Below, one piece after another: positions 3,050 through 52,814 of a stretch of DNA of 64,000 bases; positions within the stretch are counted from its first letter, which is position 1; the number at the start of each line of letters is the position of its first letter. A model generated the notes under the pieces. The model saw only the letters and a list, made by a program, of their open reading frames with translations. It ran no database searches and had not been told where the DNA came from. The position numbers and the translations under genes were made by a program. The DNA is from an uncultured Terracidiphilus sp. (GTDB taxonomy: Bacteria; Acidobacteriota; Terriglobia; Terriglobales; Acidobacteriaceae): contig CAYVGW010000001.1 in the NCBI GenBank assembly GCA_964450895.1, positions 9,259-73,258 on the forward strand, read 5' to 3'.

Positions 3050-5841
3050 TTATACCTCCAGCCGCGCAAACAGATCCTCCACCGGGCCAGGACGCCCAAA
3101 AAGATAGCCCTGAAAGAACTGGCATCCCTCGACGTCCAGAAAGCGCCTCTCTTCTTCTCGTTCCACCCCTTCCACGATCACCTCTAAATTCAATTTCTGC
3201 CCCAGGGCCAGCACGGTGGACACAATGCACGCATCGCGGCTGTCGGTCAGCATATTGCTTATGAAGCTCCGGTCGAGCTTCAATTGATCAAGAGGCAAAT
3301 CCTTCAGCGCGGAGAGCGAAGCGTAACCCGTTCCAAAATCATCCAGCGAAATCCGCACCCCGCTGGCTCGCAGCCGCCTCATCGTGGCCATGGTCTCCGG
3401 CACAGCCTCCAGGGTGATGTTCTCGGTCAGTTCCAGAATCAACCGCCGCGGATCAACGTGATAGCGTCCGATGGCGGCAAAGACTCCGGCGGCAAATTCA
3501 GCCTGGGTAAACTCGCGCGGACTCACATTGATCGAGAGGGTCAGCAATTCGGTCTCCAGACTCCGGCTCCATGCTGCCAGTTGCCGGCAAACCAGATCGA
3601 GAAGCCATCTTCCAATCGGCACCAGAAAGCCCTTCTCTTCTGCCAGATGAAGGAAAGCCGCGGGCAGCAGCAATCCACGGGTGGGATGCCGCCAGCGCAG
3701 AAGCGCCTCGGCGCCGATCAGTCTGCCCGCGCCGTCCACCTGCGGTTGATAGTGAATCAGGAAGGCATCCTCCTTCATGGCAGAGCGCAAATCCTCTTCC
3801 AGCATGGCGCGCTCCACCACCACGGCCTGCATGACGGCGCTGAAAAAACGCATTCTGTTCTTGCCGCCGCCCTTGGCCTGATACATGGCGATATCCGCCC
3901 GTTTCAGCACTTCGTCCAGCGATTGGTAATCGCTGTTGAACAGCGTTATGCCCATGCTGGCCGTGCAACTGCAGGAGCGGCCCTCCAACTGATGAGGCCG
4001 CTCCAGAACGCTTAGAATCTTCTCGCCCGCCGACGACGCTTGCAGGACCGCTTCATCCGGGTTGGTGCTTAGATTCGGCAACAGCACCACAAATTCGTCC
4101 CCTCCGAAGCGCGCCGCCGTGTCGTTGCGCCGCAAACACTCCTGCAAGCGTTCTCCCACCTGCTGCAACAGATGATCCCCCACGTCATGACCCAGCGTAT
4201 CGTTCAGGGCTTGAAGTCGTCCAGGTCTAGGAACATCAGCGCCGCATGATGGCCCGTTCGCTTCCCAGCCGTCAGCAGTTGCTTCAGGCGATTCAGCAGC
4301 AGCCTTCGATTCGGAAGTTTGGTCAGCGGATCATAAAATGCCAGAGCTTCGATCTCCGCCTCGGCGCGCTTGCGCAGGGTGATGTCGCGGGCGGCGGCGA
4401 AGATGCCCTCCACCTCGCCCGACTTGTTCTTGAGGACAGATGCGTTATACAGCACCTCAATGATCTGGCCGGAGACATTGCGAATGGCCAGCGGATAATC
4501 CCGCACACTGCCGGTTTCAAAGACCTCCCGATAGCCCTCGCGCGCCTTCTCCGGCTGGGTAAAGTAGTCGCAGAAATCGCTGCCGATCAGAACCTCGCGC
4601 GTCAGGCCGGTCACCGTCTCCGTCGCCAAGTTGACATCGGTGATCTTTCCCTCGGAGCTAATGGTCACCATCGGGTCCAAACTGGCCTCGATCAGGCTGC
4701 GCGTATAGTCGGCCACCCGATGCTCCGCCTCTTCTGCGCGCTTATGCTCCGTAATATCGCGAACAATGGTCGAGACTCCCAACAGGTTTCCCAAGCCATC
4801 CTTGATAGGGCTTACTGACAGCGAGACCTGAATGCGCGTCCCATCCTTGCGCAGCCGCTCGGTCTCGTGGTGCCGCACCGTCTCGCCCCGCTTGATCTTC
4901 CGCAAAAGCTCATGGAAGTCCTCCATGAACTCCGGCGGAATCACTTTGGTCAGCGACTGCCCCATCATCTCCGCGGCGGTGTAGCCGTAAATCTCCTCCG
5001 CTCCCGGATTCCAACTGGTCACAATCCCATCCAGCGTTTTGCCCACGATTCCATCCGAAGTCGCGGTGACAATCGACGCCAGATGGAGATTCACCTCCTC
5101 GGCCAGCTTCTCGCGCGTAATCTCCTGAATGGTGCCGGAGACAGTGCGCGGCCTTCCCTTGCCGTCGCGTTCAACTTTCGCATGAACGCGCACCCATTTG
5201 CTTTCGCCCGCGCACACAATGCGGCACTCAAAGCGGCATTCGCCTCTCTCCAGCGGCGCGTTCCAGAGAGCTTCAAGATGTTCCCGGTCCTGCCGGTCAA
5301 TGACTTCGTTAAGAAAAGCCTCTCTGGGCAGAATCTGACTTCCGATAGGTAGCTTGAAGATGCGGCGGGCTTGGTCGGACAAGACGAGGGTGTCGCCGGC
5401 GATATTCAGCTCCCAACTGCCGATCTGCCCCACGCTCAGGTGCTCGCGCAGGCGAATCAGCTCCCGATTGCGCCGCAGCAGGGCTTCGGCCAGCACGCTG
5501 AGCATGACACCCGTGCCGGTAAAGGTCGCAACTCCGATGCCTTCACCGGGATTGGGGATCCCAAAGGCGCCGATTGGTTCAAGAAAGAAATAGTCGGCGA
5601 CGATGGCTGAGAGAAGCGTGGCCACCAGTCCTGGCCAAAGGCCGGCTGAGAATGCCGTCACCGCCACGGCCAGAAAATAGGTAGGAAAAGGGAGAGAGAT
5701 AGGAAAGTAATATCCGATTCCCATGCGCAGAATTGTTGCCGCGGCCACCGCGAATGCGGCGATTCCATAGCGCGTAAGCCGGCTTTGAACTCCGGCTTGG
5801 GCAAAGAGGAAAAAGGTTCTGTCCAAAAAAACGGGGCCCAT
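3050..5841 (-). pseudogene. Membrane (DUF4118-like)-3xPAS-GGDEF-EAL c-di-GMP enzyme split by a 1-nt frameshift at about 4205-4212
   Basis: ORF 4204-5841 ends YDPLTKLPNR...FLDLDDFKP*; another frame resumes LNDTLGHDVGDHLL...RFGGDEF...EALLRW...DDFGTGY (ORF 3050-4183). Minus strand reads TTCAAGCCCTGAACGATACG, one base short of F-K-x-L-N-D-T. Could be a sequencing error. Confidence 0.85.
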
Positions 5842-18499: not shown

Positions 18500-18524
18500 T
18501 GAATTCGATTCCTTTCACTGAAAC

Positions 18525-18574
18525 TGTAGCGCCGGTCTCCAGACCGGCTGTAACGCGAACGTCCTCGTCCGCGC
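18525..18574 (+). repeat. GTAG-type REP-like double hairpin (family 1)
   Basis: TGTAGCGCCGGTCTCCAGACCGGCTGTAACGCGAACGTCCTCGTCCGCGC. Confidence 0.8.
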
Positions 18575-18597
18575 TTCTCCCGCGAAGCATGAAACTT

Positions 18598-20196: not shown

Positions 20197-20223
20197 TGCC
20201 TTGCCTCCCGCTGCGCATGAAAC

Positions 20224-20272
20224 TGTAGCGCCAGCCTCCTGGCCGGCTGTTACGTGGACCTCCCGATCCACG
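20224..20272 (+). repeat. GTAG-type REP-like double hairpin (family 1)
   Basis: TGTAGCGCCAGCCTCCTGGCCGGCTGTTACGTGGACCTCCCGATCCACG. Confidence 0.8.
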
Positions 20273-20310
20273 TTTGTTTCTATTCAGGAACAGCAAACAG
20301 ATTCTATGAT

Positions 20311-20402: not shown

Positions 20403-21143
20403 CTAGGAAAAATCGTCGATGGTGGGCTTGATCACCAGTTCCGGCACGTGGGCGCGCGGGGGCAGCTTGATCAGCAGACGCACCGCGTCGGCAATGTCTT
20501 GAGGTTGCAGGATCGATTCGCGGCGGCCTTCATTCACCACCACGCCCACGCGCTCGCCGCGCGCCTCCAGCAGCGTGGTGTTCACCTCGCCGGAGTAAAT
20601 CACGGTGGAGCGAACCCCCCGCCCACGCTCCTCGCGGCTGATGCTGGTGCCCAGCGCGCCCTGGGCGAATTTGGCGGCGGAGTAGGCCGCGCCGGTGATG
20701 GTGTTGGCGCGCAGGCCGGCAAGCGAGGAGATCTGCACAATCAGCCCGCCGCCGCGCGTGCGCATCGAGGGCAGCACAAAGTGAATGGCGTTGAAGGCCG
20801 CGGTGAGATTGGCGGCGATCACCCGGTCCCAGTCGGCGGGGTCGAGCGAGCGCAGGCTGCGCTGGCGGACGTTCATTCCGGCGGCGCAGATCAGCACGTC
20901 GATCACGCCCAGATGCGCCAGGGTCTGCTCGACCATGGCCTGCGCCTGGGCGCGGTCGGTCAGGTCGCAGGGCAGGAGGATGGCTTTCTCAGCGCCCGCG
21001 CCCAGTCCGCCCCGCAGAGCTTCCAGCTTGGCAACGTCCCGGCCAACCAGGGCCAGGGCGTAGCCTTCTTCCGCCAGCATCAACGAGATCGCGCTGCCCA
21101 ATCCGCCGCTCGCGCCAATCACCAAAGCCGTCTTTTGCGTCAT
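20403..21143 (-). CDS. Short-chain dehydrogenase/reductase
   Basis: GASGGLG, CAAG, ISSLAG, YSAAK catalytic motif, LQPQDIADAV. Confidence 0.92.
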   Translation of the reverse strand: MTQKTALVIGASGGLGSAISLMLAEEGYALALVGRDVAKLEALRGGLGAGAEKAILLPCDLTDRAQAQAMVEQTLAHLGVIDVLICAAGMNVRQRSLRSLDPADWDRVIAANLTAAFNAIHFVLPSMRTRGGGLIVQISSLAGLRANTITGAAYSAAKFAQGALGTSISREERGRGVRSTVIYSGEVNTTLLEARGERVGVVVNEGRRESILQPQDIADAVRLLIKLPPRAHVPELVIKPTIDDFS

Positions 21144-21188
21144 TACTGAATCTCCCATGCGTCGCACACCGGCTCTCGCCGATCAAAT

Positions 21189-21238
21189 TGTAGCGCCGAC
21201 CTCCTGGTCGGCTGTAACGTGGACCTCCTGGTCCACGC
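21189..21238 (+). repeat. GTAG-type REP-like double hairpin (family 1)
   Basis: TGTAGCGCCGACCTCCTGGTCGGCTGTAACGTGGACCTCCTGGTCCACGC. Confidence 0.8.
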
Positions 21239-21248
21239 TTGTTTCTTT

Positions 21249-22364
21249 TCAAAGTTCCGCCAGAAAAAGGCCAATCGAATAGACTTCCTTGTATTCGATC
21301 AGCCTGATCTCCGCATCCGCGAGGATCGACTTCCACTCCTCGGCCGGTAGCGGCATTCCCTTGCCACGCAATCGATGAATCAGCAGGTAATCGAGCTGCG
21401 CGAATTGCGAAGGCGGCTTCTTGACTGTGTCCGGCGTCTCCGGCGGCATGGTTTCAGAAAAAAGAAAGAGCTTGCCGGGAAAGGCTTGCTTGATCTCGCG
21501 CAGCACTTCGACGATGCGCTGCCTGCCGTAACGGCCAATCTCGTGCAATAGGTAGATGGAGGCGACCACATCGATCCGCTTGCGCGTCTCCTCATCCAGC
21601 GGCAGCGGCTCCGCGCCGATCTCCGCGCGAATCACGCGCAGGCGCGACTCCAGTCCATAGCGGCGAATCTTCTCCTCCGAGCCGGCGATCTTCTCCGGCA
21701 GCTTGTCGATGCCGATGCCCCGAAACTCCGGATCGGAGCGCGCCATCTGCACCAGAAAGCCGCCTGAGCCGCAAGCCAGATGCAGAAAATTATGGAGATT
21801 GCGCTCGGCCAGAATCTTCAGCACCGCCGGAACCAGCCGCACGCTGGTCAACTGTTCCGTGCCCAGGCCGGAGTGCACCGTGGAGTGCGTCTTTTCAATC
21901 TCCGCGCGCGTGGTTTCCTGGCGCAGCAGTGGGCCGATACTGTGCAATTGCCCGCCGTAGCCGCCCAGATTGATATTCAAGACGCCGCGCATCACCACAT
22001 TGGAGAGCCGCGAGCCATACCCGGTCAGCTCGAATTGCCCGTCTGCCGCGCTCAGAATTCCGCAGCCGACAAGATAATGCAGCAGCGACAGAAGGACTTC
22101 GGCGTCCAAGCGCAGCGTCTCCGCGACCTCGGCGGCGGTGAAGCGCGGATGCGTCAGCGAGTACTCGTAAAATCCGCTATCCCACAGAGCCAGAAGCACT
22201 TGCATCAAGATTGTGTGGCTGATCATGCGCATGCCTTCGGCCATGCACTTGACGCCCTCCAGCTCGCCGGAGAGTTTGCGCGCACGCGCCCCTTCGGCCA
22301 GCAAGTCGTATGGGTCGGCGGGCGGCGGCAAGGTTGGCGGCTTGGCGGCTGGATTGGTGCTCAT
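21249..22364 (-). CDS. Class I SAM methyltransferase with N-terminal dimerisation domain, resembling MppJ/MrsA 2-oxo-acid C-methyltransferases
   Basis: LLALWDSG...LLHYLVGCGIL, GGYG, FLHLACGSGG (motif I variant), RGIGID, YLLHEI, FSE, YLLIH..RGKG. Confidence 0.75.
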   Translation of the reverse strand: MSTNPAAKPPTLPPPADPYDLLAEGARARKLSGELEGVKCMAEGMRMISHTILMQVLLALWDSGFYEYSLTHPRFTAAEVAETLRLDAEVLLSLLHYLVGCGILSAADGQFELTGYGSRLSNVVMRGVLNINLGGYGGQLHSIGPLLRQETTRAEIEKTHSTVHSGLGTEQLTSVRLVPAVLKILAERNLHNFLHLACGSGGFLVQMARSDPEFRGIGIDKLPEKIAGSEEKIRRYGLESRLRVIRAEIGAEPLPLDEETRKRIDVVASIYLLHEIGRYGRQRIVEVLREIKQAFPGKLFLFSETMPPETPDTVKKPPSQFAQLDYLLIHRLRGKGMPLPAEEWKSILADAEIRLIEYKEVYSIGLFLAEL

Positions 22365-22394
22365 CGGTTTCTCCTCATGCGTTTCACGAACAAC

Positions 22395-22452
22395 ATACGC
22401 GTTTGAAACGAGCAGTATGCGCGTTTGAAACGAACAATATGCGCGTTTGAAT
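22395..22452. repeat. 22-bp tandem repeat (about 2.7 copies plus a degenerate upstream part)
   Basis: ATACGCGTTTGAAACGAGCAGT / ATGCGCGTTTGAAACGAACAAT / ATGCGCGTTTGAAT. Confidence 0.85.
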
Positions 22453-22456
22453 TGAA

Positions 22457-22506
22457 TGTAGCGCCGGTCTCCAGACCGGCTGTCGCGCGGGCGTCCTCGC
22501 CCGCGC
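22457..22506 (+). repeat. GTAG-type REP-like double hairpin (family 1)
   Basis: TGTAGCGCCGGTCTCCAGACCGGCTGTCGCGCGGGCGTCCTCGCCCGCGC. Confidence 0.8.
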
Positions 22507-22527
22507 TCGTCCAGGCTAATAACTCAA

Positions 22528-24246
22528 TTACACGGTCTTGGCGTCCGATGCGTTTTTCCGGGCGTGGGCGCGTTTCAGCAAATAGATGCGCGAGAAAGTC
22601 TGCGTCTGCGGACTGGGCGTGCGCTGCGCGCTCACGTTGACGCAAGCCGGCTTGCCCGATGCGAAGGCACGCTCCAGCGCGGGGCCGAGCTGCTCGGCGC
22701 TCTCGACAAACTCTCCATGCGCGCCCAGGGATTCGGCCAGCAGATCCCAGCGCGTGTTGGTCAATTCCGTTCCCACCACGCGATCCGGGCCGAACCATTT
22801 CTGCTGATAGTAGACCTCGACGCCGAAGGCCGCATCGTTGGCCACTACGACCACCACCGGAATGCCGTAACGCACGGCTGTCTCCATCTCCATGACGGAA
22901 AAGCCCAGCGCGCCGTCGCCGGTCATCACCACTACCTTCGCATCGGGAAAGGCCAGCTTGGCGCCGATCGCGTACGGCAGGCCGACGCCGAGGTGGCCCA
23001 GCACCGTGCTGGCCTGCCAGCCTCCGGAGCGGCGGGCGGTCATGCAATAGCGCGCCCAGGAGGAGAAATCGCCGCCGTCAAAGGCCAGAATGCTCTGCTC
23101 GTCGAGGAGTTTTTCCACCTCCAGCGCAATCCGCGCCGGATGTACGCCGGGCTGGGTGGAGACGGCGCTTCGCTCAGCGCGCGCGGCCTGCTCGCGGCGC
23201 ATCTCGCGCAGCGTGGCCACCCACTCAACCGGCTCGTTCCAACTCCGGCCCTGCGCCGCCGCAAGAAGCTGCGCGGTCACCGCGCGCGTGTCGGCCGCCA
23301 CGCCGCATTCGATTGCGTGGTTCTTCCCAATCTCGCTGGCATCCGGGCAAACGTGAATGATTTTGGCGGAGCCGAAGCACGTGCCGTAAGCCAGCGCGTG
23401 GTCCAGCCGGTCGCCCAGCAGCAGCAGCACATCCACGCGGCCTTCCAACTGCGCCGCCTGATTCACCGTGCCGTAGCCGTCGCCGAAGCAGTAGGGATGA
23501 TGGTCGGGGACCAATCCGCGCGCCTGCTCGACGGTCATCAGCGGAATTTTGACGGTCTCGATGAACTGCCGCAGCACGCCGCCGGCATGGGACCAGAATG
23601 CCGCCGCGCCGGCGACGATCAGCGGCCGCTCCGCCTTGGAAAGCAGCTCCAAAGCCTGCTCGACGAAGGCCGGTTCGGCCTGCGCGGCAGCGGTAGGCTG
23701 GGTTCTGGACGGAGGGAAGATTGCGCTTTCCTCCACTTCAATCTGCCCCGGAAACACGTCCGAGGTGATGCTGATCTGGACCGGTCCGGGCATTCCGCTC
23801 GTGGCGATGCGGAAGGCTTTGTCGATGTACTCCGGAATCCGCGGGCCGCTGGAGAGCAGCGCCGACCATTTGGTGACGGGCGCGCACATCGGAACCTGCG
23901 GCAGTTCCTGGCGTCCGCCTCGGCCCAGGTTGGCCGGCACGTCGATGCCGCTGAGCACAATGACCGGAGAGCATTCGGCATACGCGATGGAAATTCCCGC
24001 CACGGAGTTGGCCAGGCCGGGGCCGGGCGAGACCAGCACGACGGAGGGCTGACCGGTCGCGCGCGACCAGCCCTCGGCGGTGTGGATCAGCGCGGATTCA
24101 TGGCGGCCCGTGACCACCTCGACGCCCTCGTCCAGACAGGCCTCATACACCGGAAACAGCGGCGCGCCGGGAATGGTGAAGAGGCGGCGGACGCCATGCG
24201 CCTTCAACGCCCGGATCAGAAGAAGACCGCCTGTTATCTTTTCCAT
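22528..24246 (-). CDS. ThDP-dependent enzyme (acetolactate synthase-like / 2-hydroxyacyl-CoA lyase-like)
   Basis: RHE catalytic Glu, GPGLAN, DGGDF, GHLGVGLPYA, GDGALGF...VVAND ThDP-binding motif. Confidence 0.9.
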   Translation of the reverse strand: MEKITGGLLLIRALKAHGVRRLFTIPGAPLFPVYEACLDEGVEVVTGRHESALIHTAEGWSRATGQPSVVLVSPGPGLANSVAGISIAYAECSPVIVLSGIDVPANLGRGGRQELPQVPMCAPVTKWSALLSSGPRIPEYIDKAFRIATSGMPGPVQISITSDVFPGQIEVEESAIFPPSRTQPTAAAQAEPAFVEQALELLSKAERPLIVAGAAAFWSHAGGVLRQFIETVKIPLMTVEQARGLVPDHHPYCFGDGYGTVNQAAQLEGRVDVLLLLGDRLDHALAYGTCFGSAKIIHVCPDASEIGKNHAIECGVAADTRAVTAQLLAAAQGRSWNEPVEWVATLREMRREQAARAERSAVSTQPGVHPARIALEVEKLLDEQSILAFDGGDFSSWARYCMTARRSGGWQASTVLGHLGVGLPYAIGAKLAFPDAKVVVMTGDGALGFSVMEMETAVRYGIPVVVVVANDAAFGVEVYYQQKWFGPDRVVGTELTNTRWDLLAESLGAHGEFVESAEQLGPALERAFASGKPACVNVSAQRTPSPQTQTFSRIYLLKRAHARKNASDAKTV

Positions 24247-24301
24247 CGGAAGCTCCGTTTCAGAAATAGTACGGTGACAGTTTTATGGCGAAACAAGCAT
24301 C

Positions 24302-24371
24302 GAGTAAGTAAGTAAAGTAGTGAATGAATGAGTGAAAAAGTGAACAATTTCGCTATTTTTCACTCATTCAC
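24302..24371. repeat. Paired short GTGAA/TTCAC repeats forming a hairpin
   Basis: GAATGAGTGAAAAA ... TTTTTCACTCATTC; TTTCACTCATTCAC also at about 32158-32171. Confidence 0.65.
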
Positions 24372-24389
24372 GATCAAACAGTCACGATA

Positions 24390-25154
24390 CTAGTTGGCTT
24401 GATCCGGCTTTTTCAAGCGGAACATGACTTTGGCCGGATTGCCGGCCACCACGGCGTAAGGCGGCACGTGGCTGCGCACCACCGAACCCGCCGAGATGAC
24501 GCTGCCCTCGCCGATTTTCACGCCGGGAAAGATAATGCAGTGCCTGCCGATCCACACGTTGTCACGGATAAAGACCGGCCGCACGTCCTCCGCCTGGGGC
24601 GCCTCATGCTTCCAGCGCGAACCCGGATCAGTGTCATGGCCGTTGGAGTCCATGATCTGAATGCCGCCGGAGAGTGTGCAGTTGCGGCCAATCTCGATCA
24701 GCTTTGCAATAGTGAAGCCGCAACCGCCGCCAATGCCGGTATTGTCCCCGATGCGCAGCGTGGGACGGTCGGAAAAGCGCGTCGCAAAACCGATGCCGAT
24801 CTTTCCCGCTATGCTGACATTGTCGCCGACGATGATGTCGCCCTTGCCGGTGATCCAGTGAAGATGCGCGGCGGTATGCATGTTGCGCCCGTATTGCTTG
24901 CAAAAGGCCTTGAAGTACGGCTCGCAGATGAAAACGCGCATGACAAAGTAATACATGGTGCGCGCCAGCAGAAAGACCCACAACAGCGGACGCGCGATCA
25001 CCTTGGGCGCGGGCACGGAAAATCCATGAAAGGCGTGATAGCCCCAGCGCAGCAGGCGCGCCGCAGGACTTTGCGAGGTTGCCAGGCGCCTGCGCAGGGA
25101 CAGCTTGGGCGCTTGGCTGGCCGGAGTTTCAATGGAAACTTCACTCGCGCTCAT
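24390..25154 (-). CDS. Hexapeptide-repeat (LbetaH) acyltransferase
   Basis: IIVGDNV, LRIGDNT, IEIGRNC, DSNGH, IRDNVWIG, GVKIGEGSVISAGSVV, VAGNPAK; ATGA overlap with ligase. Confidence 0.9.
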   Translation of the reverse strand: MSASEVSIETPASQAPKLSLRRRLATSQSPAARLLRWGYHAFHGFSVPAPKVIARPLLWVFLLARTMYYFVMRVFICEPYFKAFCKQYGRNMHTAAHLHWITGKGDIIVGDNVSIAGKIGIGFATRFSDRPTLRIGDNTGIGGGCGFTIAKLIEIGRNCTLSGGIQIMDSNGHDTDPGSRWKHEAPQAEDVRPVFIRDNVWIGRHCIIFPGVKIGEGSVISAGSVVRSHVPPYAVVAGNPAKVMFRLKKPDQAN

Positions 25155-26557
25155 TTGTACCTCTGTGCATCCAGCTCGCTGGCCGGTTCGATGGCTACGG
25201 CGTGCGGCATCTCGGCGCGCCGCAGAACCTGTTTCAGGATTGCGTGCAGATCGGCTTTGCCTTCTTCCGTAAGCATAGCCGCATCCACGCGCAACTCCAA
25301 ATTGTAATCCTCGCTGCCATCGCCGTGCTTGAAGACCTTGGTCGCGGCCTTGACCACATGGGGAAGACCGCTGGTCAGCCGCCGCACCGTGGCCAGGCTG
25401 ATCTTCTCGCCCTTGCGGCTGATGAAGTCGCTGAGCCGCCCTTTGAAGAAAAGGTAGCCGTCGGCGTCAATCTCGAAGGCGTCGCCGGTGGCGATCATCT
25501 GCGGCGCAACCAAATCATTGGGCCGGCCCTCGACGCGGCCAATCGTCCGCTTCATAACGGTGGCCGACTTCACAAAGAGCTGCTTCCGTCCGCTGCCATC
25601 CTCGACCGGACGCAGCGAGACCTCGGTCCCCTCGTGCGGCAATCCCACAGAGGCGTAGCGGCTGGCGGGCGCGTCATGCGCGGCCAGCGTGCAGACCCGC
25701 GGCCCAGCCTGCGTCAGCCCGTAGGTGAGATAGACTTCCTTGCCCTTGCGCAACTCCACCAGCCGCGCCGCCAGGTCCGGCTGGAGCTGATCGCCGCCCA
25801 CCGAGAGCACGCGCGGCGCGGTCAGCGCGCTGGGGTCGGACTGAAAGAAGGAACGGATATGCACCGGCGTCAGCGAGGAGACGGTGATCTCGTACTGCTT
25901 CAGCGCCTCCAGATAACCTGCCTGATGGAAGGGCGGGCCGCTGATGATCAGCCGGTTGCCGCGGGTCAGCGAACCCAGCGCCTGGCTCGACAGCGCGAAG
26001 GAAAAGTAGAGCGGAAGATTCAGCAGCACGGTGTCGTCCGCGCGCTGGCCAATCGCATCCGCGTGGCGCTTGCCATTGAGCAGAATCGCCTCGAAATCGA
26101 AGACGCAGCCCGAGGAAACCCCGGAAGTCCCCGAGGTCATCAGAACCATCTCGCCGGGGGCGGCGGCCGGCTCCGGCGGCGCCTGGAGCAGCGCAATGTG
26201 CAGATGTCCGATGTGCTTGTAAGAGACGGCGCCCAGATCGCCGGTCGTCAGGCGCAGCGCCCCGACGGCAAAAGCGCCCATCGCCGTGGCAATCTCCCGC
26301 AGCCGCGCCGACGGCATCAGCGGCGGCAGCAGCGCCGGCACGCCGCCGGCCATCAGCACGCCAAAAAAGTTGTGCAGCAGCTCGCGGCTGTTGGGCAGGC
26401 AGAGCAGAACCAGATCGCCGGGGCGCAGGCCAAGCTCCTTCCAAGCCTTCCCCAGCGCCGCGCAATCCGGCGTACCGTGCGGAAAGCCGCTGGGCAGCGC
26501 GTCCACCGTCCGCTCAACAAATGAATCCAACAGGTGCGGAGAGAGAAACTTCTTCAT
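25151..26557 (-). CDS. Adenylate-forming (ANL) acyl-ACP ligase, Cfa5/AmcH-like
   Basis: MTSGTSG P-loop, LPLYFSFAL, TYGLTQAGP, TGD, KGRLSDFISRKGEKI; coupled to KS genes. Confidence 0.85.
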   Translation of the reverse strand: MKKFLSPHLLDSFVERTVDALPSGFPHGTPDCAALGKAWKELGLRPGDLVLLCLPNSRELLHNFFGVLMAGGVPALLPPLMPSARLREIATAMGAFAVGALRLTTGDLGAVSYKHIGHLHIALLQAPPEPAAAPGEMVLMTSGTSGVSSGCVFDFEAILLNGKRHADAIGQRADDTVLLNLPLYFSFALSSQALGSLTRGNRLIISGPPFHQAGYLEALKQYEITVSSLTPVHIRSFFQSDPSALTAPRVLSVGGDQLQPDLAARLVELRKGKEVYLTYGLTQAGPRVCTLAAHDAPASRYASVGLPHEGTEVSLRPVEDGSGRKQLFVKSATVMKRTIGRVEGRPNDLVAPQMIATGDAFEIDADGYLFFKGRLSDFISRKGEKISLATVRRLTSGLPHVVKAATKVFKHGDGSEDYNLELRVDAAMLTEEGKADLHAILKQVLRRAEMPHAVAIEPASELDAQRYK

Positions 26558-27159
26558 GCGCTGGCTCCCTCCATCAAATCAACGGCCGGATCAACGGCTG
26601 CCAGCCAGGAAATCACCGATTCCGTCAGCGGCGCGCCCGGCCCAGAAAATTCCGTCGGCGCAAGCAGCACGGCGCGGCTTAGGATCGCCCCGGAGGCATC
26701 GGCGCGGCAGCCGGCCACAACCAGAAAAGGCGCAACCTTCCGCGTCAGCCAGCCCTCGCATAATCCCAGCGCCACGGGAACGCCCTCCGGCGGCTCCATG
26801 GTCAGGTTCAGCGTCGGCCCGCGCAATCCGAAGGCGATGCAGGAGACTCCCGCCAGCGTCCACGGCCCCGAGGCCGCGTAATGCAGCGGTGAGGAAAATC
26901 CTGCCTCCCCGTCCGTCTGCATCTTGGCCATCGACTTTCCCGGCCCCTGATCGCTGATCGTGAGGATGCCGATCTGATGCCGGAACTCGGCCAGGATGCC
27001 CTCCGCTCCGGCCAGCGCATGGTGGACCGCGTTGGCGGTAATCCACGCCGCCGGATCGGCAAAGCGCACCGTCGCGCGAATCTTTGCGTCAAACAGGCCG
27101 GGATCGTGGCTCGCAGCCTCACCCGTTCCCACAACCATCAATGGTTTCATCTCGCTCAT
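26554..27159 (-). CDS. Short non-catalytic KS partner (Cfa4/AmcG 'cyclisation factor'-like)
   Basis: About 200 aa; RFADPAAW, SPLHYAASGP, CIAFGLRGPTLNL (KS N-domain-like) with no Cys-His-His; ATGA overlaps on both sides. Confidence 0.72.
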   Translation of the reverse strand: MSEMKPLMVVGTGEAASHDPGLFDAKIRATVRFADPAAWITANAVHHALAGAEGILAEFRHQIGILTISDQGPGKSMAKMQTDGEAGFSSPLHYAASGPWTLAGVSCIAFGLRGPTLNLTMEPPEGVPVALGLCEGWLTRKVAPFLVVAGCRADASGAILSRAVLLAPTEFSGPGAPLTESVISWLAAVDPAVDLMEGASA

Positions 27160-28283
27160 GACGCCGCCTCGAAGACCAGGCTCGTATCGAAGCCTCCAAA
27201 GCCGAGCGTCAAACTCAACGCCGCGCGTGGAGTGCAAGAGACGGGCTGAGAAATCGCCAGCGGCAGGGTAACCTCCGGCAGCGGCTGCTCCAATCCGTAA
27301 ATCGGAGGAACCTGCCCTGTGCGCAGCGCCAGAATCACGGCAATCGCTTCAATCGCCCCGGTTGCGCCCAGCGTATGCCCAAAATTGCCCTTGGTGGCGA
27401 AGACCAAGGGCCGATCCGCTCCCGTAAACAGCGCGTTGAAGGCGTTGCCCTCGGTCGTGTCGTTCATTACCGTCCCGGAGCCATGCGCGTTGATCAGCCC
27501 GACCGCGGACAAAGGCAGATTCGCGTCTTTCAGCGACCGCTGCATCGCGTAGCCTGCGGACAATCCGGTGCTATCCGCCATGGTCATTCCTGTAGCGTCA
27601 TTGGCGGAGCCGGCTCCGGCGAGAATCGCCAGACTGGATTGCTTGGACGCATCCGCCTCAAGAACGACAAATCCCGCCCCCTCGCCCAGCAGCGTTCCAT
27701 CGTGGCGCTGATCAAAGGCCCGCAGAAGCGTCGGCGACAAGGTGCCCAGCGCCGAATGCGCCATGCGCTTATTGGGCGTCAGCACATCCGCGCCGCCGCA
27801 GACGCAGCACTTCGCCGCGCCCGAACGAATCAGCTCCGCCCCCACCAGAATGGCGTCAGCCCCTGAAGAACAAGCAGTGGAAATCACAATCGGCGGCACG
27901 GCTGCTCCCAGCTCACGCGCCACTTCCCGTGCCCAGCCGGAGAGCGGCGCGCGCGAAGCCGCCTCATCCAGATAAGCGCCCAGGCTGGTGCTCAGCACAA
28001 AACGCACCTCCGGATCGCCTGGCTCGCGTCCGGCTTGCGCCAGCGCCCTGCGGAGGGTGGCAACCGCCATCTTCACCAGCCGCTCGGTCGGCGGAAGCTC
28101 CGAGGGCGGAAGCTCCGCGCCCATCGCCGGCGCAACCAGCAGATTGCGCAGCCGACCGCTGTGCGCAACCGGCCTCATGCCGGTCTTCCCCGCGAGCAGC
28201 GCCTGCCACACCGGCTCCAGCCCGTCGCCCAGCGCCGTCAGCCACGCCATTCCCGTAACTGCGATTCTTGGATCAAATGCCAT
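27156..28283 (-). CDS. Beta-ketoacyl-ACP synthase, type II (Cfa3/AmcF-like)
   Basis: STACSSGADA (Cys), GEGAG, INAHGSGT (His), KGNFGHTLGATG (His), GFGG. Confidence 0.92.
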   Translation of the reverse strand: MAFDPRIAVTGMAWLTALGDGLEPVWQALLAGKTGMRPVAHSGRLRNLLVAPAMGAELPPSELPPTERLVKMAVATLRRALAQAGREPGDPEVRFVLSTSLGAYLDEAASRAPLSGWAREVARELGAAVPPIVISTACSSGADAILVGAELIRSGAAKCCVCGGADVLTPNKRMAHSALGTLSPTLLRAFDQRHDGTLLGEGAGFVVLEADASKQSSLAILAGAGSANDATGMTMADSTGLSAGYAMQRSLKDANLPLSAVGLINAHGSGTVMNDTTEGNAFNALFTGADRPLVFATKGNFGHTLGATGAIEAIAVILALRTGQVPPIYGLEQPLPEVTLPLAISQPVSCTPRAALSLTLGFGGFDTSLVFEAAS

Positions 28284-28403
28284 AAAAGGATGAACTCTCG
28301 CGGTGAGGAAATGCCAAAAACCCGTGCGCTATGGCGCTGCCCGCGAATCCCAGAGTTCCGGTACGCAGGCCAGCCAGCTTCGAGGCGAGTAAGAGGATAA
28401 GAA

Positions 28404-28679
28404 TTACGGCTTGCCGCTTGCCGCTTTTTGTGTCTGTAAACGGTCGATCAGCTCCGACAGCACCCGCACCGACCGGAAATTCTCCGGCGTATAGTCGTTG
28501 TCGCTGATCTCAATGTTAAATTTCTGTTCGCACAGCACGCGCAATTCCACAAAACCGACGGAGTCCAGCCCGACCACCGACCGAAGTCCATCATCCAGGC
28601 CAATAGCGTCCTCGGCGATCTCGACAAACAGGTCGTTGACGATCATCTTCCGCAAACTTGCGATCAAGTCCTCACGCAT
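28404..28679 (-). CDS. Acyl carrier protein (Cfa1/AmcB-like)
   Basis: 91 aa, acidic, GLDSVGFVEL phosphopantetheinylation motif, FNIEISD..TPENF; AGGAGG RBS. Confidence 0.9.
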   Translation of the reverse strand: MREDLIASLRKMIVNDLFVEIAEDAIGLDDGLRSVVGLDSVGFVELRVLCEQKFNIEISDNDYTPENFRSVRVLSELIDRLQTQKAASGKP

Positions 28680-28850
28680 CTTCCTATCCTCCTATTGGAT
28701 ACACGTGCAACCGCCCTCCCCGATAATCGGCGAAAACGCCCAACTCCTGCACTTTGAACGATTATAGCCGACACTCGGAAGGCTCACAATGAATATATGG
28801 GCGTTGCTCGGCGCCCCAGTTCCAAAGAGAACTCGAATCGCCTACTGAAG

Positions 28851-30202: not shown

Positions 30203-30261
30203 GCCTGATTCCCTCGTTCGTTGAGTCATATCACTGCAAAGTTGAATGCTCACATCACCAC

Positions 30262-30376
30262 AAATCTGTCATCCTGAAACCTTCAAATCCCCAAAAATCT
30301 GTCATCCATAAATCTTCACATCTCCAACAATCTGTCATCCTGAGCGGAGCGTTCTTCAGCGGAGTCGAAGGACCTG
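30262..30376. repeat. 33-bp tandem repeat running into a TGTCATCCTGAGCG...GTCGAAGGAC REP-like element (family 4)
   Basis: ATCTGTCATCC at 30264, 30297 and 30330 (exact 33-bp spacing). Confidence 0.75.
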
Positions 30377-32211: not shown

Positions 32212-32634
32212 TTAATTCAGCAGGCGCTTGCGCAGTGCGGTCCTTGTTGTTTCATTGATCTCGGTAACCGGCACGCTGATCCTTCCAGCCCCGCTGTCAA
32301 GCACAGCATCGCTGCGCTCCGGCCACGCATAAAACAGCTTGTTCTGCTTCACATCCACCGCCAGGAGAAATCCCGGAACGTTTGAGTTTGCCAAACGCCG
32401 ATAGGACCTCTTATCGAGAGGGAACGAAGAAGAAATGGCGCGTTCTGTGCCTTTTACTTCCACGGCGAAGGTATTCACTCCCCCCTCTGGATTCCCGAAG
32501 CCAACAAGGAAGTCGAATCCGAGATCAAGCGTCGGACGGGCGAGGAACTTGGGTTCAAGCTCCTGGAGGAAGAGCTCAGCCAATACCTCACTCCTCCTCC
32601 CAATAAAATCAGCGTGTGATGATGTCATTTTCAT
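32212..32634 (-). CDS. Small PD-(D/E)XK nuclease-fold protein (DUF4365-like)
   Basis: GRRSE helix, DLGFDFLV, FAVEVKGT, SNVPGFLLAVD; ATGA overlap with partner. Confidence 0.75.
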   Translation of the reverse strand: MKMTSSHADFIGRRSEVLAELFLQELEPKFLARPTLDLGFDFLVGFGNPEGGVNTFAVEVKGTERAISSSFPLDKRSYRRLANSNVPGFLLAVDVKQNKLFYAWPERSDAVLDSGAGRISVPVTEINETTRTALRKRLLN

Positions 32635-33116
32635 GCGAACACCGAAGTCTTGGGTTTATGGCTGGTGGTCTTCCAGAACATTCGTACCTCATCATGCAGA
32701 ACATGAAGATTCCCAGCCGTTAGTTCGTTGGAGATTGGGATACAAGTGATCCCCTTGACGGGCATGCCGAGACAAACTGACCGGACGAAGACGCGTCGCG
32801 AAGGTTCATGAATTCCGAAAACATACGTCGGACCGGGAATCTGAAGAAGGCGTTCGACATCCTGCTTTTTCATCGAGATTCTCAGGCTCCGTGAATTCTT
32901 CGGGAATGCCGAGCCGGTTGTTTTTGCTTGCACAAAGAAATAGGGCGTTCTTCCGCGCACATTCCGCAGTTCAACGTAGAAGTCAATCGATGGCCACTTG
33001 TCGCCCAGGAATCCAGGCCGAAACAGCGGCTCAGGAAAGGCCTGATAGTTCGTAAGAATATCCTGAACAATCAGTTCCCCGCGAAATCCCGTCATATCTC
33101 TGAGATCGATTGTCAT
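32631..33116 (-). CDS. Small PD-(D/E)XK nuclease-fold protein (DUF4365-like)
   Basis: GFRGE helix, PSIDFYVEL, FFVQAKTT, PGPTYVFGI. Confidence 0.78.
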   Translation of the reverse strand: MTIDLRDMTGFRGELIVQDILTNYQAFPEPLFRPGFLGDKWPSIDFYVELRNVRGRTPYFFVQAKTTGSAFPKNSRSLRISMKKQDVERLLQIPGPTYVFGIHEPSRRVFVRSVCLGMPVKGITCIPISNELTAGNLHVLHDEVRMFWKTTSHKPKTSVFA

Positions 33117-50015: not shown

Positions 50016-52814
50016 ATGCCCTTGTCCTGGAATGAGATACGTGACCGTGCAATTGCCTTCTCGCGGAAGTGGAAGGAAGAATCCTCAGAGGAAGCCGAGG
50101 CAAAAACTTTTTGGGATGACTTCTTCCATATCTTCGGTATCACTCGCAGCCGAGTTGCCTCATTTGAGAAATCAGTCGTTAAATTCGACGGCAAGAAAGG
50201 TTACATTGACCTTCTCTGGAAGGGTGTTCTTCTGGTCGAACACAAGTCGCGTGGGCGCGATCTAGACGGCGCCTTTCAGCAGGCTACAGACTACTTCCAC
50301 GGTCTCAACGAACGCGATCTCCCGCGCTACGTGATTGTCTCGGACTTTGCGCGCATCCGCCTCTACGACCTCGAAGACGCTGCCGAGAACAGCTTTCACG
50401 AATTCAAGCTGGAAGAGCTGCACAAGAATATCCGCAGCTTCGGCTTCATCGCGGGCTACCAGACGCGCAGCTACCCACAGCAAGCCGCAGTGAACATTGA
50501 AGCCGCTGAAAAACTGGGCAAGCTGCACGATCTTCTCAAGGACGCTGGTTATCAGGGCCATGCTCTGGAACTATTCCTTGTGCGAATCCTCTTCTGCCTT
50601 TTCGCGGAAGACAATGCCATCTTCGAGCGACAGCAATTTCGCGAGTGGATTGAGCAGCGCACGGCAGAGGATGGCTCAGATCTGGGCGCGGCGCTCGGAC
50701 ATCTCTTCCAGATACTCAATACCGAACCGGAAAAACGCGCTCGGAATCTTGACGAGCATCTGGCCGCCTTCCGTTACATCAACGGCAAGCTCTTTGAAGA
50801 GATCATTCCACTCACATCCCTTGACCGACAGATGCGAGAAATGGTGCTGGAGTGTACCGGCCTGGACTGGGCGCGCATCTCGCCGGCCATCTTCGGCGCT
50901 CTCTTTCAGTCCATCATGGACAAGAAGGCCCGCCGCAACCTTGGCGCGCACTACACCAGCGAGACAAACATCCTGAAAGCCTTGCAGCCGCTCTTTCTGG
51001 ATTCGCTTCGCGCCGAGTTTGAGCGTATCCGGCGTGACAGCAACCGGTTGAAAGAGTTTCATGCCAAGCTAGGCCGGATTTGCATCCTCGATCCTGCCTG
51101 CGGCTGCGGTAACTTTCTCGTTATCGCTTATCGCGAACTGCGGATGCTGGAACTTGATGTGCTGCGCGAAATCTTCAAGTCCAGCCCCGAAGGCCGCCTG
51201 GATGTGAGCAGCATCGTCTTTGTGGATGTAGACCAGTTCTACGGCATCGAGATCGAGGAGTTTCCCGCGCAGATTGCGCAGGTCGCGCTGTGGATGACCG
51301 ACCACCAGATGAACCAGCTCGTCTCGTCTGAGTTCGGCCAGTACTTCGCCCGCCTGCCACTCAGAAAGGCTCCCAGTATCGTGAACGGCAATGCGCTCAG
51401 GATGGATTGGGAAGAGATCATTCCGCCGGAGAAGTTGAGTTATATCGTGGGGAATCCGCCGTTTGTGGGCGCAATGATAATGGACGACGGACAGCGGGAA
51501 GATATCGCAACTGTCTTTTCCGATGTGAAAGGCGCTGGCGTGCTCGACTATGTAACTGCCTGGTACGTAAAGGCAGCCAAGTACATAGCGAGAACGAAGC
51601 CTATTGGCCAGATTCGTTGCGCATTTGTCTCTACTAATTCAATCGCGCAAGGTGAACAGGTTGGAATACTCTGGAAGATCCTTTACAAATATGGCGTCAA
51701 GATCGATTTTGCCCATCGCACATTTCGATGGCGGAATGAAGCGAAAGGCATAGCCGCCGTCCATTGCGTCATCCTTGGTTTCGGCATCGGGGAAACCGAG
51801 AATAAAGTAATTTACGACTATGAATCAATTAGCGCAGAACCGCATGCAACACCCGCAAGATTCATCAATCCATATTTGGTCGATGCGCCGGACGTATTAC
51901 TGGAAAATCAAAGTAAACCAATCTGCAACGTGCCTGCGATGAAGTTTGGGAGCATGCCGCGTGACGGCGGGCACCTTATCCTCTCGGATCTGGAACGCAA
52001 AGACTTGATTGGCTCTTCACCCTCTGCCCGGAAATTTATACGTCCGTACACGGGGGCGGAAGAATTTCTTAATGGCGGTTCTCGATACTGTCTTTGGCTT
52101 CTTGGTGTTCCGCCTTCAGAGTTGCGCGGAATCGCCAAGGTAATGGACAGGCTAAAGGCGGTGCGTCAGTATCGTCTGGCGAGCAAGGCAGAATCTACAC
52201 GCAGGGCAGCAGATACACCGGGTATATTTGTGCAACTGGCGCAACCCCAAAGCAAGTATCTGTTAGTGCCGCGAGTCTCTTCAGAACGCAGAAACTACAT
52301 CCCTATGGATTTCATGAAGGCTCGTGTAATTGCCAACGATCAAGTACTTACAGTCGAGGGGGCATCAGAGTTTCATTTCGGTGTTTTATCTTCCACGATG
52401 CACATGGCATGGGTTCGCGCCGTATGTGGGCGGCTTGAGAGCAGATACCGCTATTCCAAAGATATTGTCTACAACAACTTTCCCTGGCCCGATCCAACCG
52501 GCAAACAGCGCGCCGCCATCGAAGCAGCGGCGCAAGGCATACTGGACGAGCGTGCCCAGCATCCCGAATCCACTCTCGCCGATCTTTACGACCCCCTCTC
52601 CATGCCCATCGGACTTGTGTATGCGCACAAAGCGCTGGACCGAGCGGTGGACGCCGCGTATGGTGGAAGAAACTTCAAGAGCGAGGCGGAACGAATGGCT
52701 TTTCTCTTCACGCTTTATGAAAAACTAACATCGCTCTTTCCGTCCAAGATAGTGAAAAGTAGGCGAGTGGCCGGTAGTTCCAGAAAAAGGCTGAAGTCTT
52801 CCGAGGGGGAGTGA
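50016..52814 (+). CDS. MmeI-like (Type IIL/IIG, YeeA-like) fused restriction endonuclease-N6-adenine methyltransferase with TRD
   Basis: YIDLLWKGVLLVEHKS nuclease motif, GAHYTS, LDPACGCGNF, GNPPF, AFVSTNSI, RYRYSKDIVYNNFPWP, LADLYDP. Confidence 0.92.
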   Translation: MPLSWNEIRDRAIAFSRKWKEESSEEAEAKTFWDDFFHIFGITRSRVASFEKSVVKFDGKKGYIDLLWKGVLLVEHKSRGRDLDGAFQQATDYFHGLNERDLPRYVIVSDFARIRLYDLEDAAENSFHEFKLEELHKNIRSFGFIAGYQTRSYPQQAAVNIEAAEKLGKLHDLLKDAGYQGHALELFLVRILFCLFAEDNAIFERQQFREWIEQRTAEDGSDLGAALGHLFQILNTEPEKRARNLDEHLAAFRYINGKLFEEIIPLTSLDRQMREMVLECTGLDWARISPAIFGALFQSIMDKKARRNLGAHYTSETNILKALQPLFLDSLRAEFERIRRDSNRLKEFHAKLGRICILDPACGCGNFLVIAYRELRMLELDVLREIFKSSPEGRLDVSSIVFVDVDQFYGIEIEEFPAQIAQVALWMTDHQMNQLVSSEFGQYFARLPLRKAPSIVNGNALRMDWEEIIPPEKLSYIVGNPPFVGAMIMDDGQREDIATVFSDVKGAGVLDYVTAWYVKAAKYIARTKPIGQIRCAFVSTNSIAQGEQVGILWKILYKYGVKIDFAHRTFRWRNEAKGIAAVHCVILGFGIGETENKVIYDYESISAEPHATPARFINPYLVDAPDVLLENQSKPICNVPAMKFGSMPRDGGHLILSDLERKDLIGSSPSARKFIRPYTGAEEFLNGGSRYCLWLLGVPPSELRGIAKVMDRLKAVRQYRLASKAESTRRAADTPGIFVQLAQPQSKYLLVPRVSSERRNYIPMDFMKARVIANDQVLTVEGASEFHFGVLSSTMHMAWVRAVCGRLESRYRYSKDIVYNNFPWPDPTGKQRAAIEAAAQGILDERAQHPESTLADLYDPLSMPIGLVYAHKALDRAVDAAYGGRNFKSEAERMAFLFTLYEKLTSLFPSKIVKSRRVAGSSRKRLKSSEGE

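Follow-up and report, generated by a model that had tools for sequence, protein, structure and literature searches.

The amcG clusters that have been characterized or assigned yield small molecules, namely cispentacin, coronafacic acid and FR900452 (Hibi 2023, PMC10698177). According to the accessible text of that paper, the ligase AmcH loads 2-oxoglutarate, alone among seven acids tested, and AmcF-AmcG performs the extension, cyclization and dehydration that lead to 3-oxocyclopent-1-ene-1,2-dicarboxyl-acyl carrier protein (ACP); in the cispentacin pathway, AmcE then decarboxylates, AmcC transaminates and AmcD releases the product. The same work defined a minimal type, made up of amcG clusters holding only amcB, F, G and H. 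In this study, we have analyzed a stretch of 64,000 nucleotides (the window), part of contig C1 of the genome (4.68 Mb, 90% complete) of an uncultured Terracidiphilus sp. Eight open reading frames (ORFs) at window positions 20403-28679, all on the reverse strand, form a cassette encoding an ACP, a ketosynthase (KS), a non-catalytic KS partner, an adenylate-forming ANL ligase, a left-handed β-helix (LbH) acyltransferase, a thiamine diphosphate (ThDP)-dependent enzyme, a methyltransferase (MT) and a short-chain dehydrogenase/reductase (SDR) (Table 1). We lean, with some reserve, towards a role of this cassette as a donor module, in which a ring built on the ACP would be used to O-acylate a surface glycan of Wzx/Wzy type.

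A preliminary description of the locus, made from the sequence alone, had reported eight co-oriented genes with three ATGA overlaps, a GLDS-bearing ACP, an intact KS Cys/His/His triad and a partner of about 200 residues, and had equated the core with Cfa1/3/4/5 and AmcB/F/G/H in a probable acidobacterium. The gene layout is as described, with overlaps at the KS/partner, partner/ligase and ligase/LbH junctions and remaining intergenic gaps of 105-163 bp, and the host is indeed acidobacterial. All four core proteins pass the corresponding NCBIfam equivalog cut-offs: the ACP that of NF058660 (AmcB; 108 bits versus a cut-off of 80), the KS that of NF058662 (AmcF; 482 versus 325), the partner that of NF058659 (AmcG; 107 versus 80) and the ligase that of NF058661 (AmcH; 507 versus 370). 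Their identities to Cfa1, Cfa3, Cfa4 and Cfa5 of a Pseudomonas amygdali plasmid are 41, 52, 25 and 41%, respectively. The GLDS motif of the ACP is invariant in 48/48 aligned rows, the ligase retains the substrate-pocket motifs of Cfa5, and the partner, which is 25-35% identical to Cfa4-type proteins, has no Pfam match. In a quick tree that carries long-branch warnings and long outgroup branches, the KS clusters with Cfa3-type KSs, apart from FabF-like KSs (96 by SH-aLRT). A FabF identity and a type I polyketide synthase (PKS) role were also considered for the KS, and both are ruled out by its score with the FabF model (196 versus 494) and its placement in the tree. The assignment of the four genes to the AmcB/F/G/H, or Cfa1/3/4/5, type is supported by these comparisons.

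By its gene content, the cluster is assigned to the minimal-type amcG class and not to the cispentacin or coronafacic-acid types. It shares the gene order of its core with coronafacic acid (cfa1-7, cfl) and cispentacin (amcB-H), but no Cfa2/AmcE decarboxylase, type I PKS, Cfl, aminotransferase or thioesterase was found here. A Pfam scan of 36 large window ORFs revealed no dehydratase, aminotransferase or type I PKS, in agreement with the preliminary description, and type I PKS, Cfl ligase and Cfa2/AmcE are absent from both the window and the related loci. AmcC-, AmcD-, AmcE- and thioesterase-like genes were found in 0/107 related loci, with AmcC/AmcD/AmcE-like queries drawn from an unannotated Kitasatospora cluster and Cfa2, and in the 90% complete own genome the AmcE model reaches 75 bits at best, versus a cut-off of 140. 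A cluster without dehydratase is to be expected, since AmcF-AmcG itself dehydrates and AmcE is a decarboxylase (PMC10698177, accessible text). Like other minimal-type clusters, such as that of FR900452 described in the same paper, the cassette has the four core genes, lacks AmcC/D/E and has the same predicted ACP intermediate; it differs from them in forming a separate clade, in its fixed LbH and SDR, in its swappable MT and ThDP genes and in its ties to polysaccharide operons.

A search with the partner retrieved 26 GTDB loci and 97 metagenomic loci, 80 of the latter being retained. All eight genes occur in the order of the window in each of the 16 Acidobacteriaceae GTDB loci of sufficient length, at 55-93% identity; a seventeenth ends inside the ThDP gene. 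Because the same eight genes recur in this way, the set cannot be ascribed to chance, and the ThDP, MT and SDR genes do accompany the core elsewhere. The preliminary label of an orphan cluster was therefore wrong. Within the genus the cassette is patchy, with AmcG over the cut-off in 18/401 genomes; the carriers show 87-96% GyrB identity to the own genome, a range that overlaps that of non-carriers. In a phylum-wide draw, AmcG exceeded the cut-off in 1/401 genomes, the own one, and the weak matches were ordinary KSs. The 169-species amcG list of PMC10698177, in its accessible form, contains no Acidobacteria and includes Minicystis rosea and one Planctomycetes match. In a KS and ligase tree of 24 rows (L024, L083 and L104, lacking a full ligase, were left out), the cassette proteins form a separate clade (100/100), inside which the Acidobacteriaceae clade (also 100/100) is nested; the outgroup consists of only three rows of cfa/amc type.

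Gene frequencies were compared in those 48 loci (23 GTDB and 25 metagenomic, some of them duplicates) whose sequence extends 6.5 kb or more downstream. KS, ligase and SDR are present in all 48 and LbH in 47, and in the one locus counted without LbH the gene sits further along the same operon; ThDP1 and MT1, the types found in the window, occur in 37 each, whereas 5 loci have a second ThDP type (ThDP2) and 13 have other MT paralogues. A ThDP gene is always accompanied by an MT, and an MT may occur without a ThDP gene. These frequencies lead us to regard LbH and SDR as fixed partners of the core and MT/ThDP as interchangeable extras. In two planctomycete cassette genomes, an MT was not found by the query and the locus has no ThDP gene; therefore, the core works without both.

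Of the nine non-Acidobacteriaceae GTDB loci, five (L022, L023, L025, L026 and L030) have glycosyltransferase, priming transferase, flippase or Wzy genes running in the same direction as the cassette; as a background, regions no more than 10 kb from such genes make up 2.7-5.5% of the own genome. The other four comprise two 4.4-kb contigs and two myxobacterial loci, in which an SGNH/GDSL protein, with a weak AlgX match in one case, is the sole common neighbor. In the planctomycete genome G838, the cassette is interleaved with a polysaccharide operon in the order Wzy_C, flippase, KS, partner, ligase, SDR, three GT4 glycosyltransferases and other sugar enzymes, 2-epimerase, the orphan gene F67, GT2, DegT, Gfo, LbH and ACP, so that some 16 kb separate the KS from LbH and ACP, which follow GT2, DegT and Gfo. 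The metagenomic locus L107 carries exactly the eight genes of the window, its ThDP and MT types included, and they are preceded by glycosyltransferase, F67 and UDP-GlcNAc 2-epimerase genes. The same flippase family directly adjoins the cassette in L011, L053, L060/L061 and L087, and the own genome also holds it. Since the polysaccharide-associated loci hold deep branches of the KS and ligase clade, residence in polysaccharide operons is probably ancestral, as far as the small outgroup allows this to be read. In two of the loci (L023:3868-8533 and L083), a set of adenylation enzyme, ACP, 402-aa protein and MBOAT/DltB-like protein, resembling Dlt/AlgI-type polymer acylation, lies directly upstream of the cassette ACP.

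The own genome has an exosortase-A-type Wzx/Wzy operon on contig C28; its contig C90 carries F67, a 2-epimerase gene and two genes of the GT4 family. F67 (G000:C90:165-1319, L144) is an orphan family of 350 residues without Pfam or NCBIfam assignment, found in 108/401 genus genomes and repeatedly inside polysaccharide operons; its weak Atlas match to polysaccharide deacetylases, scored 0.82-0.83, is a lead only. In favor of a tie between the cassette and polysaccharide genes, F67 is present in 16/17 other cassette carriers versus 91/383 non-carriers. Mutual exclusion of the cassette and the stand-alone LbH of polysaccharide operons was also considered, but the difference is not significant (0/18 versus 8/56 F67-positive genomes, p = 0.19). 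The flippase-family protein on C28 (G000:C28:28295-31099; L146:11295-14099) is encoded by a single ORF of 934 residues, the C-terminal half of which contains a GT4-like domain; its relatives measure about 520-550 residues.

The LbH enzyme has the maltose and galactoside O-acetyltransferases as its nearest solved relatives. H173, W201, R227 and H229 are present in 63/63 rows, and His173 and Trp201 align to maltose acetyltransferase; a His/Trp pair is described as catalytically important in galactoside acetyltransferase (GAT) and in NeuO in the accessible parts of PMC12775004 and PMC3046976. The protein scores under all named equivalog cut-offs (WbbJ, WcaF, Maa and LacA; for WbbJ, 68 versus 243). 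A predicted model (pLDDT 75) suggests an N-terminal extension of 65 residues with helices at 20-84, and its top Foldseek match, 1ocx, reaches a TM score of only 0.38-0.51, with AntD also among the top matches. The prediction of a complex between the LbH trimer and the ACP scored 0.00 and was used neither for nor against an interaction.

The own genome has no member of this LbH subfamily other than the cassette enzyme. A profile search of the 401 genus genomes placed exactly the 18 AmcG genomes in the top tier, followed by 12 cassette-free sisters. Ten of the 12 lie inside Wzx/Wzy operons, mostly directly after the flippase or before F67, and three lie beside ACP-loading systems (an adenylation enzyme and an ACP twice; FkbH, FabH-like enzymes and ACPs once). 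The sister of genome G783 (L210:10821-11894, G783:C15), which belongs to both sets, is a single LbH-ACP fusion ORF of 357 residues, 49% identical to the cassette LbH and followed by an amino-acid-type adenylation enzyme within an exosortase-linked Wzx/Wzy operon; this suggests a second, KS-free module for acyl or aminoacyl decoration. AmcH was not found in the 5 of the 12 sister genomes that were tested, in a search with no responding positive control. Another sister (L208:3584-19306, G615:C5) belongs to a cluster that also encodes two ACP-like ORFs, FkbH, a protein with a MaoC domain, a pair each of FabH-like enzymes and SDRs, and a fusion of radical SAM and GT9; this cluster is another ACP-fed module.

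The sisters also differ at the positions preceding the GNP motif, where Thr-Lys/Arg is found in 9/9 stand-alone sisters, as in maltose acetyltransferase, and in 0/3 ACP-partnered ones, an Arg taking the place of Thr in 63/63 cassette rows. We take these Thr-Lys/Arg residues to bind the nucleotide end of coenzyme A (CoA). T165 is among the GAT pocket residues given in the accessible part of PMC12775004. The cassette LbH most likely uses the ACP-bound ring as acyl donor rather than acetylating the ring.

Regarding the tailoring enzymes, MT1 has MrsA and MppJ as its only PDB matches, and His274 and His330 align with both of them and are retained in 8/8 aligned paralogues; the corresponding pair in SgvM, H244/H296, binds the metal that enolizes the 2-oxo acid (PMC10502145, accessible text). 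With 102 bits versus a cut-off of 425 for TIGR04543, MT1 does not reach the MrsA equivalog, and we assign it at family level to the MrsA/MppJ/SgvM 2-oxo-acid C-methyltransferases, from which it differs by this distance and by its predicted substrate, 2-oxoglutarate, predicted because it is the sole 2-oxo acid of this pathway. Methylation at C3 of 2-oxoglutarate, free or ACP-bound, would give a 5-methyl ring. ThDP1 has benzaldehyde lyase (BAL) as best PDB match, followed by OXC/HACL, and falls under every NCBIfam cut-off shown (324 versus 600 for NF058623). Elsewhere it is replaced by ThDP2, a 26%-identical paralogue nearest to acetolactate-synthase-like carboligases, or, in the two myxobacterial loci, by a PigD-like enzyme (777 bits versus 950). 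In these loci (L029:12146-14572, from Minicystis rosea, and L027) the PigD-like gene lies between ligase and LbH, the L027 copy being frameshifted in the assembly. The ThDP enzyme might decarboxylate a 2-oxo acid, as a stand-in for AmcE, or might attach an acyl group to the enone; enzymes dependent on ThDP are involved in making surface sugars, as in the case of YerE (PMC12247030, accessible text). The SDR has its motifs and its catalytic Tyr154 and Lys158 intact, and it may act on the ring ketone. L012 carries both MT/ThDP pairs. In L010 (10187-10321), L035 and L059, the C-terminus of LbH is duplicated over 45 residues; this duplicate, likely the scar of a sub-module insertion, separates the pair of ThDP1 and MT1 from a second MT.

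The gene content, the families of the core proteins, their conservation, the genomic contexts and the sister LbH-ACP fusion were observed; we infer every chemical step of the following pathway. The ligase would load 2-oxoglutarate onto the ACP, as shown for AmcH, and the KS with its cyclization factor (CYF) would add C2 from malonyl-ACP and then close and dehydrate the ring to give 3-oxocyclopent-1-ene-1,2-dicarboxyl-ACP, as shown for AmcF-AmcG. This cyclopentene diacid is probably reduced and C-methylated before transfer: the invariant SDR would reduce the ring ketone, and the optional MT, as its family and metal ligands suggest, would methylate C3 of the 2-oxoglutarate unit prior to cyclization, the optional ThDP enzyme being a candidate for either of the roles mentioned above. 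Finally, LbH would esterify a sugar hydroxyl, freeing the ACP, with a nucleotide sugar or a lipid-linked repeat unit at the inner membrane face as the probable acceptor. In the own genome, the acceptor pathway is likely the exosortase-linked polysaccharide locus on other contigs, and the end product could be a free exopolysaccharide, a capsule or a protein-linked glycan.

A number of observations weigh against glycan acylation, and we do not hold it more firmly because 16/17 Acidobacteriaceae loci have no polysaccharide genes nearby. The flanks vary in this family. The window itself has none of these genes in the Pfam scan, and the single such gene within 10 kb among the 17 loci (the flippase of L011) corresponds to the background level. 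The two myxobacterial loci lie outside polysaccharide operons, with an F67 homologue elsewhere in the genome, and an RND efflux pump is next door in three related loci (L019, L070 and L071). In the association of F67 with the cassette, relatedness is controlled only by GyrB distance to one genome, and the loci in general are related and partly duplicated, so that counts overstate their independence. As for LbH, eight of the nine stand-alone sisters are close kin (60-79% identity to L213) and the Thr-Lys/Arg pattern thus amounts to one or two events; the cassette enzymes are not resolved as one clade in the LbH tree, and this fold is also that of LbH enzymes with small molecules as acetyl acceptors (Vat, CatB, maltose).

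Several of these points would suit a free small carbocyclic metabolite, with LbH acetylating the ring with acetyl-CoA or releasing it onto a small acceptor. The isolation of most Acidobacteriaceae copies and the flanking pump fit such a product, as do the self-contained nature of the eight-gene unit, found at many unrelated chromosomal sites, the small molecules made by the known amcG clusters (PMC10698177, accessible text) and the PigD-like and BAL-like enzymes, which are typical of small-molecule pathways. Nevertheless, no thioesterase, amide ligase, non-ribosomal peptide synthetase, transporter or regulator is conserved among the loci, the deep-branching copies reside within polysaccharide operons, in one case interleaved, and the nearest sister LbHs are polysaccharide-operon or ACP-linked genes, so that we consider this outcome unlikely. 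In the preliminary description, the product was a free, methylated, O-acylated and reduced metabolite; the core assignment, the gene co-occurrence and the host have held, but that end product is less likely than a glycan substituent, because LbH most likely uses the ring as donor and no release enzyme is conserved.

The same acyl donor might also be used by LbH for N-acylation of a nucleotide-linked amino sugar, as in the WbpB/WbpE/WbpD and AntD routes. In each of the two planctomycete operons (G837 and G838), the LbH and ACP genes have GT2, a DegT aminotransferase gene and a Gfo dehydrogenase gene beside them, and AntD is one of the structural matches mentioned above. However, DegT is found in just 2 of the cassette operons examined, the two DegT homologues of the own genome lie on other contigs and a homologue of that Gfo was not found there, and LbH retains the His/Trp pair of O-acetyltransferases, which makes N-acylation improbable. 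Equally improbable is a donor other than the expected ring (an open-chain acyl group arising through methylation or ThDP chemistry) or a membrane lipid as acceptor: the partner shares only 25-35% identity with Cfa4-type proteins and has a modest AmcG margin, three unrelated ThDP families have been recruited and the ACP-using LbH enzymes LpxA and LpxD serve lipid A synthesis, but KS, ligase and ACP score far over the Amc cut-offs, two planctomycete cassettes do without detectable MT and ThDP genes, and no lipid genes recur near the cassette.

Acylation of a glycan from a carrier protein has precedents in the Dlt D-alanylation of teichoic acid and in the tetronate genes of Vibrio cholerae O1. 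There, too, a carrier is charged by a ligase and a transferase then passes the group on to a sugar or polymer, the difference being that here the KS-CYF pair would first build a carbocycle on the carrier. With the LbH sugar O-acetyltransferases (maltose/galactoside, NeuO, WbbJ and WcaF), the cassette enzyme shares the fold and the catalytic His/Trp pair, and the example of NeuO shows that an LbH that modifies a capsule may be encoded outside the capsule locus (PMC3046976, accessible text); whereas those enzymes use acetyl-CoA, the cassette subfamily has the 65-residue extension, lacks the Thr-Lys pair, is ACP-linked and is once fused to an ACP. More tentatively than for glycan acylation itself, we would extend the proposal to the whole cassette clade in Acidobacteriota, Planctomycetota, Myxococcota and others: an ACP-built cyclopentene dicarboxylate may be esterified to surface glycans as one plug-in of a wider LbH subfamily with interchangeable ACP modules (adenylation enzyme, FkbH or KS-CYF), the MT/ThDP pairs being swapped in the manner of a serotype switch.

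Table 1. Cassette genes and upstream promoter match, in window positions
Feature	Position	Strand	Remarks
AmcB/Cfa1-type ACP	28404..28679	-	91 aa, GLDS, Ser40
AmcF/Cfa3-type KS	27156..28283	-	Cys138/His267/His303
AmcG/Cfa4-type cyclization factor, non-catalytic KS partner	26554..27159	-	201 aa counted from ATG at 27159
AmcH/Cfa5-type adenylate-forming ANL ligase, predicted 2-oxoglutarate:ACP ligase	25151..26557	-	NCBIfam and Cfa5 comparison
LbH acyltransferase, N-terminal basic/hydrophobic helical extension	24390..25154	-	His173, Trp201
ThDP-dependent enzyme (ThDP1), benzaldehyde-lyase/2-hydroxyacyl-CoA-lyase-like, optional	22528..24246	-	PDB matches
MrsA/MppJ-family methyltransferase (MT1), predicted C3-methylase of 2-oxo acid	21249..22364	-	His274, His330
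SDR, predicted ring-ketone ketoreductase	20403..21143	-	246 aa from ATG at 21143; Tyr154/Lys158; adh_short
Sigma-70-like promoter match	28761..28789	-	82 bp upstream of ACP start; 10/12 consensus

The promoter match is weak, since the number of promoter-type sites found (3) is near the level of shuffled sequences (1.5 +/- 1.2). The downstream ferredoxin/FAD oxidoreductase and S9 peptidase and the upstream hut genes were considered as cassette members and rejected, as they have no match in any other locus. An intergenic repeat of about 70 nucleotides, REP-like, is present in four copies (18518-18587, 20217-20286, 21182-21251 and 22450-22519), two of them inside the cassette, and three tandem 22-nucleotide units lie between the ThDP and MT genes (22386-22451). 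Elsewhere in the window, three tandem 33-nucleotide units separate hutU and hutI (30245-30343), two tandem DUF4365 genes break up the histidine-utilization genes (32212-33116, reverse strand), a PAS-GGDEF-EAL gene is apparently split into two ORFs within its GGDEF domain (3050-5841, reverse strand), and a restriction-modification gene of MmeI type (50016-52814, forward strand) is located in a region of low GC content.

It was only in 2023 that the chemistry of KS-CYF ring formation was established, and the compounds from which it is known are antibiotics and a plant toxin. Beyond Hibi 2023, and with most subscription journals out of reach, the literature yielded neither later work on AmcG-type clusters nor a link between them and polysaccharides, which are not mentioned in the searchable text and supplements of PMC10698177 either. 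The new point with respect to the published minimal type is thus the likely destination of the ring, surface sugars instead of a released small molecule. If this is true, the ring-forming family would have a new use that joins polyketide and polysaccharide biosynthesis, and an ACP-dependent family of sugar acyltransferases with modular donors would exist. From the point of view of genome mining, a note of caution follows, in that such clusters may give no extractable small molecule. For the peat and soil bacteria that carry the cassette, our proposal would predict an undescribed carbocyclic acyl group on their exopolysaccharides.

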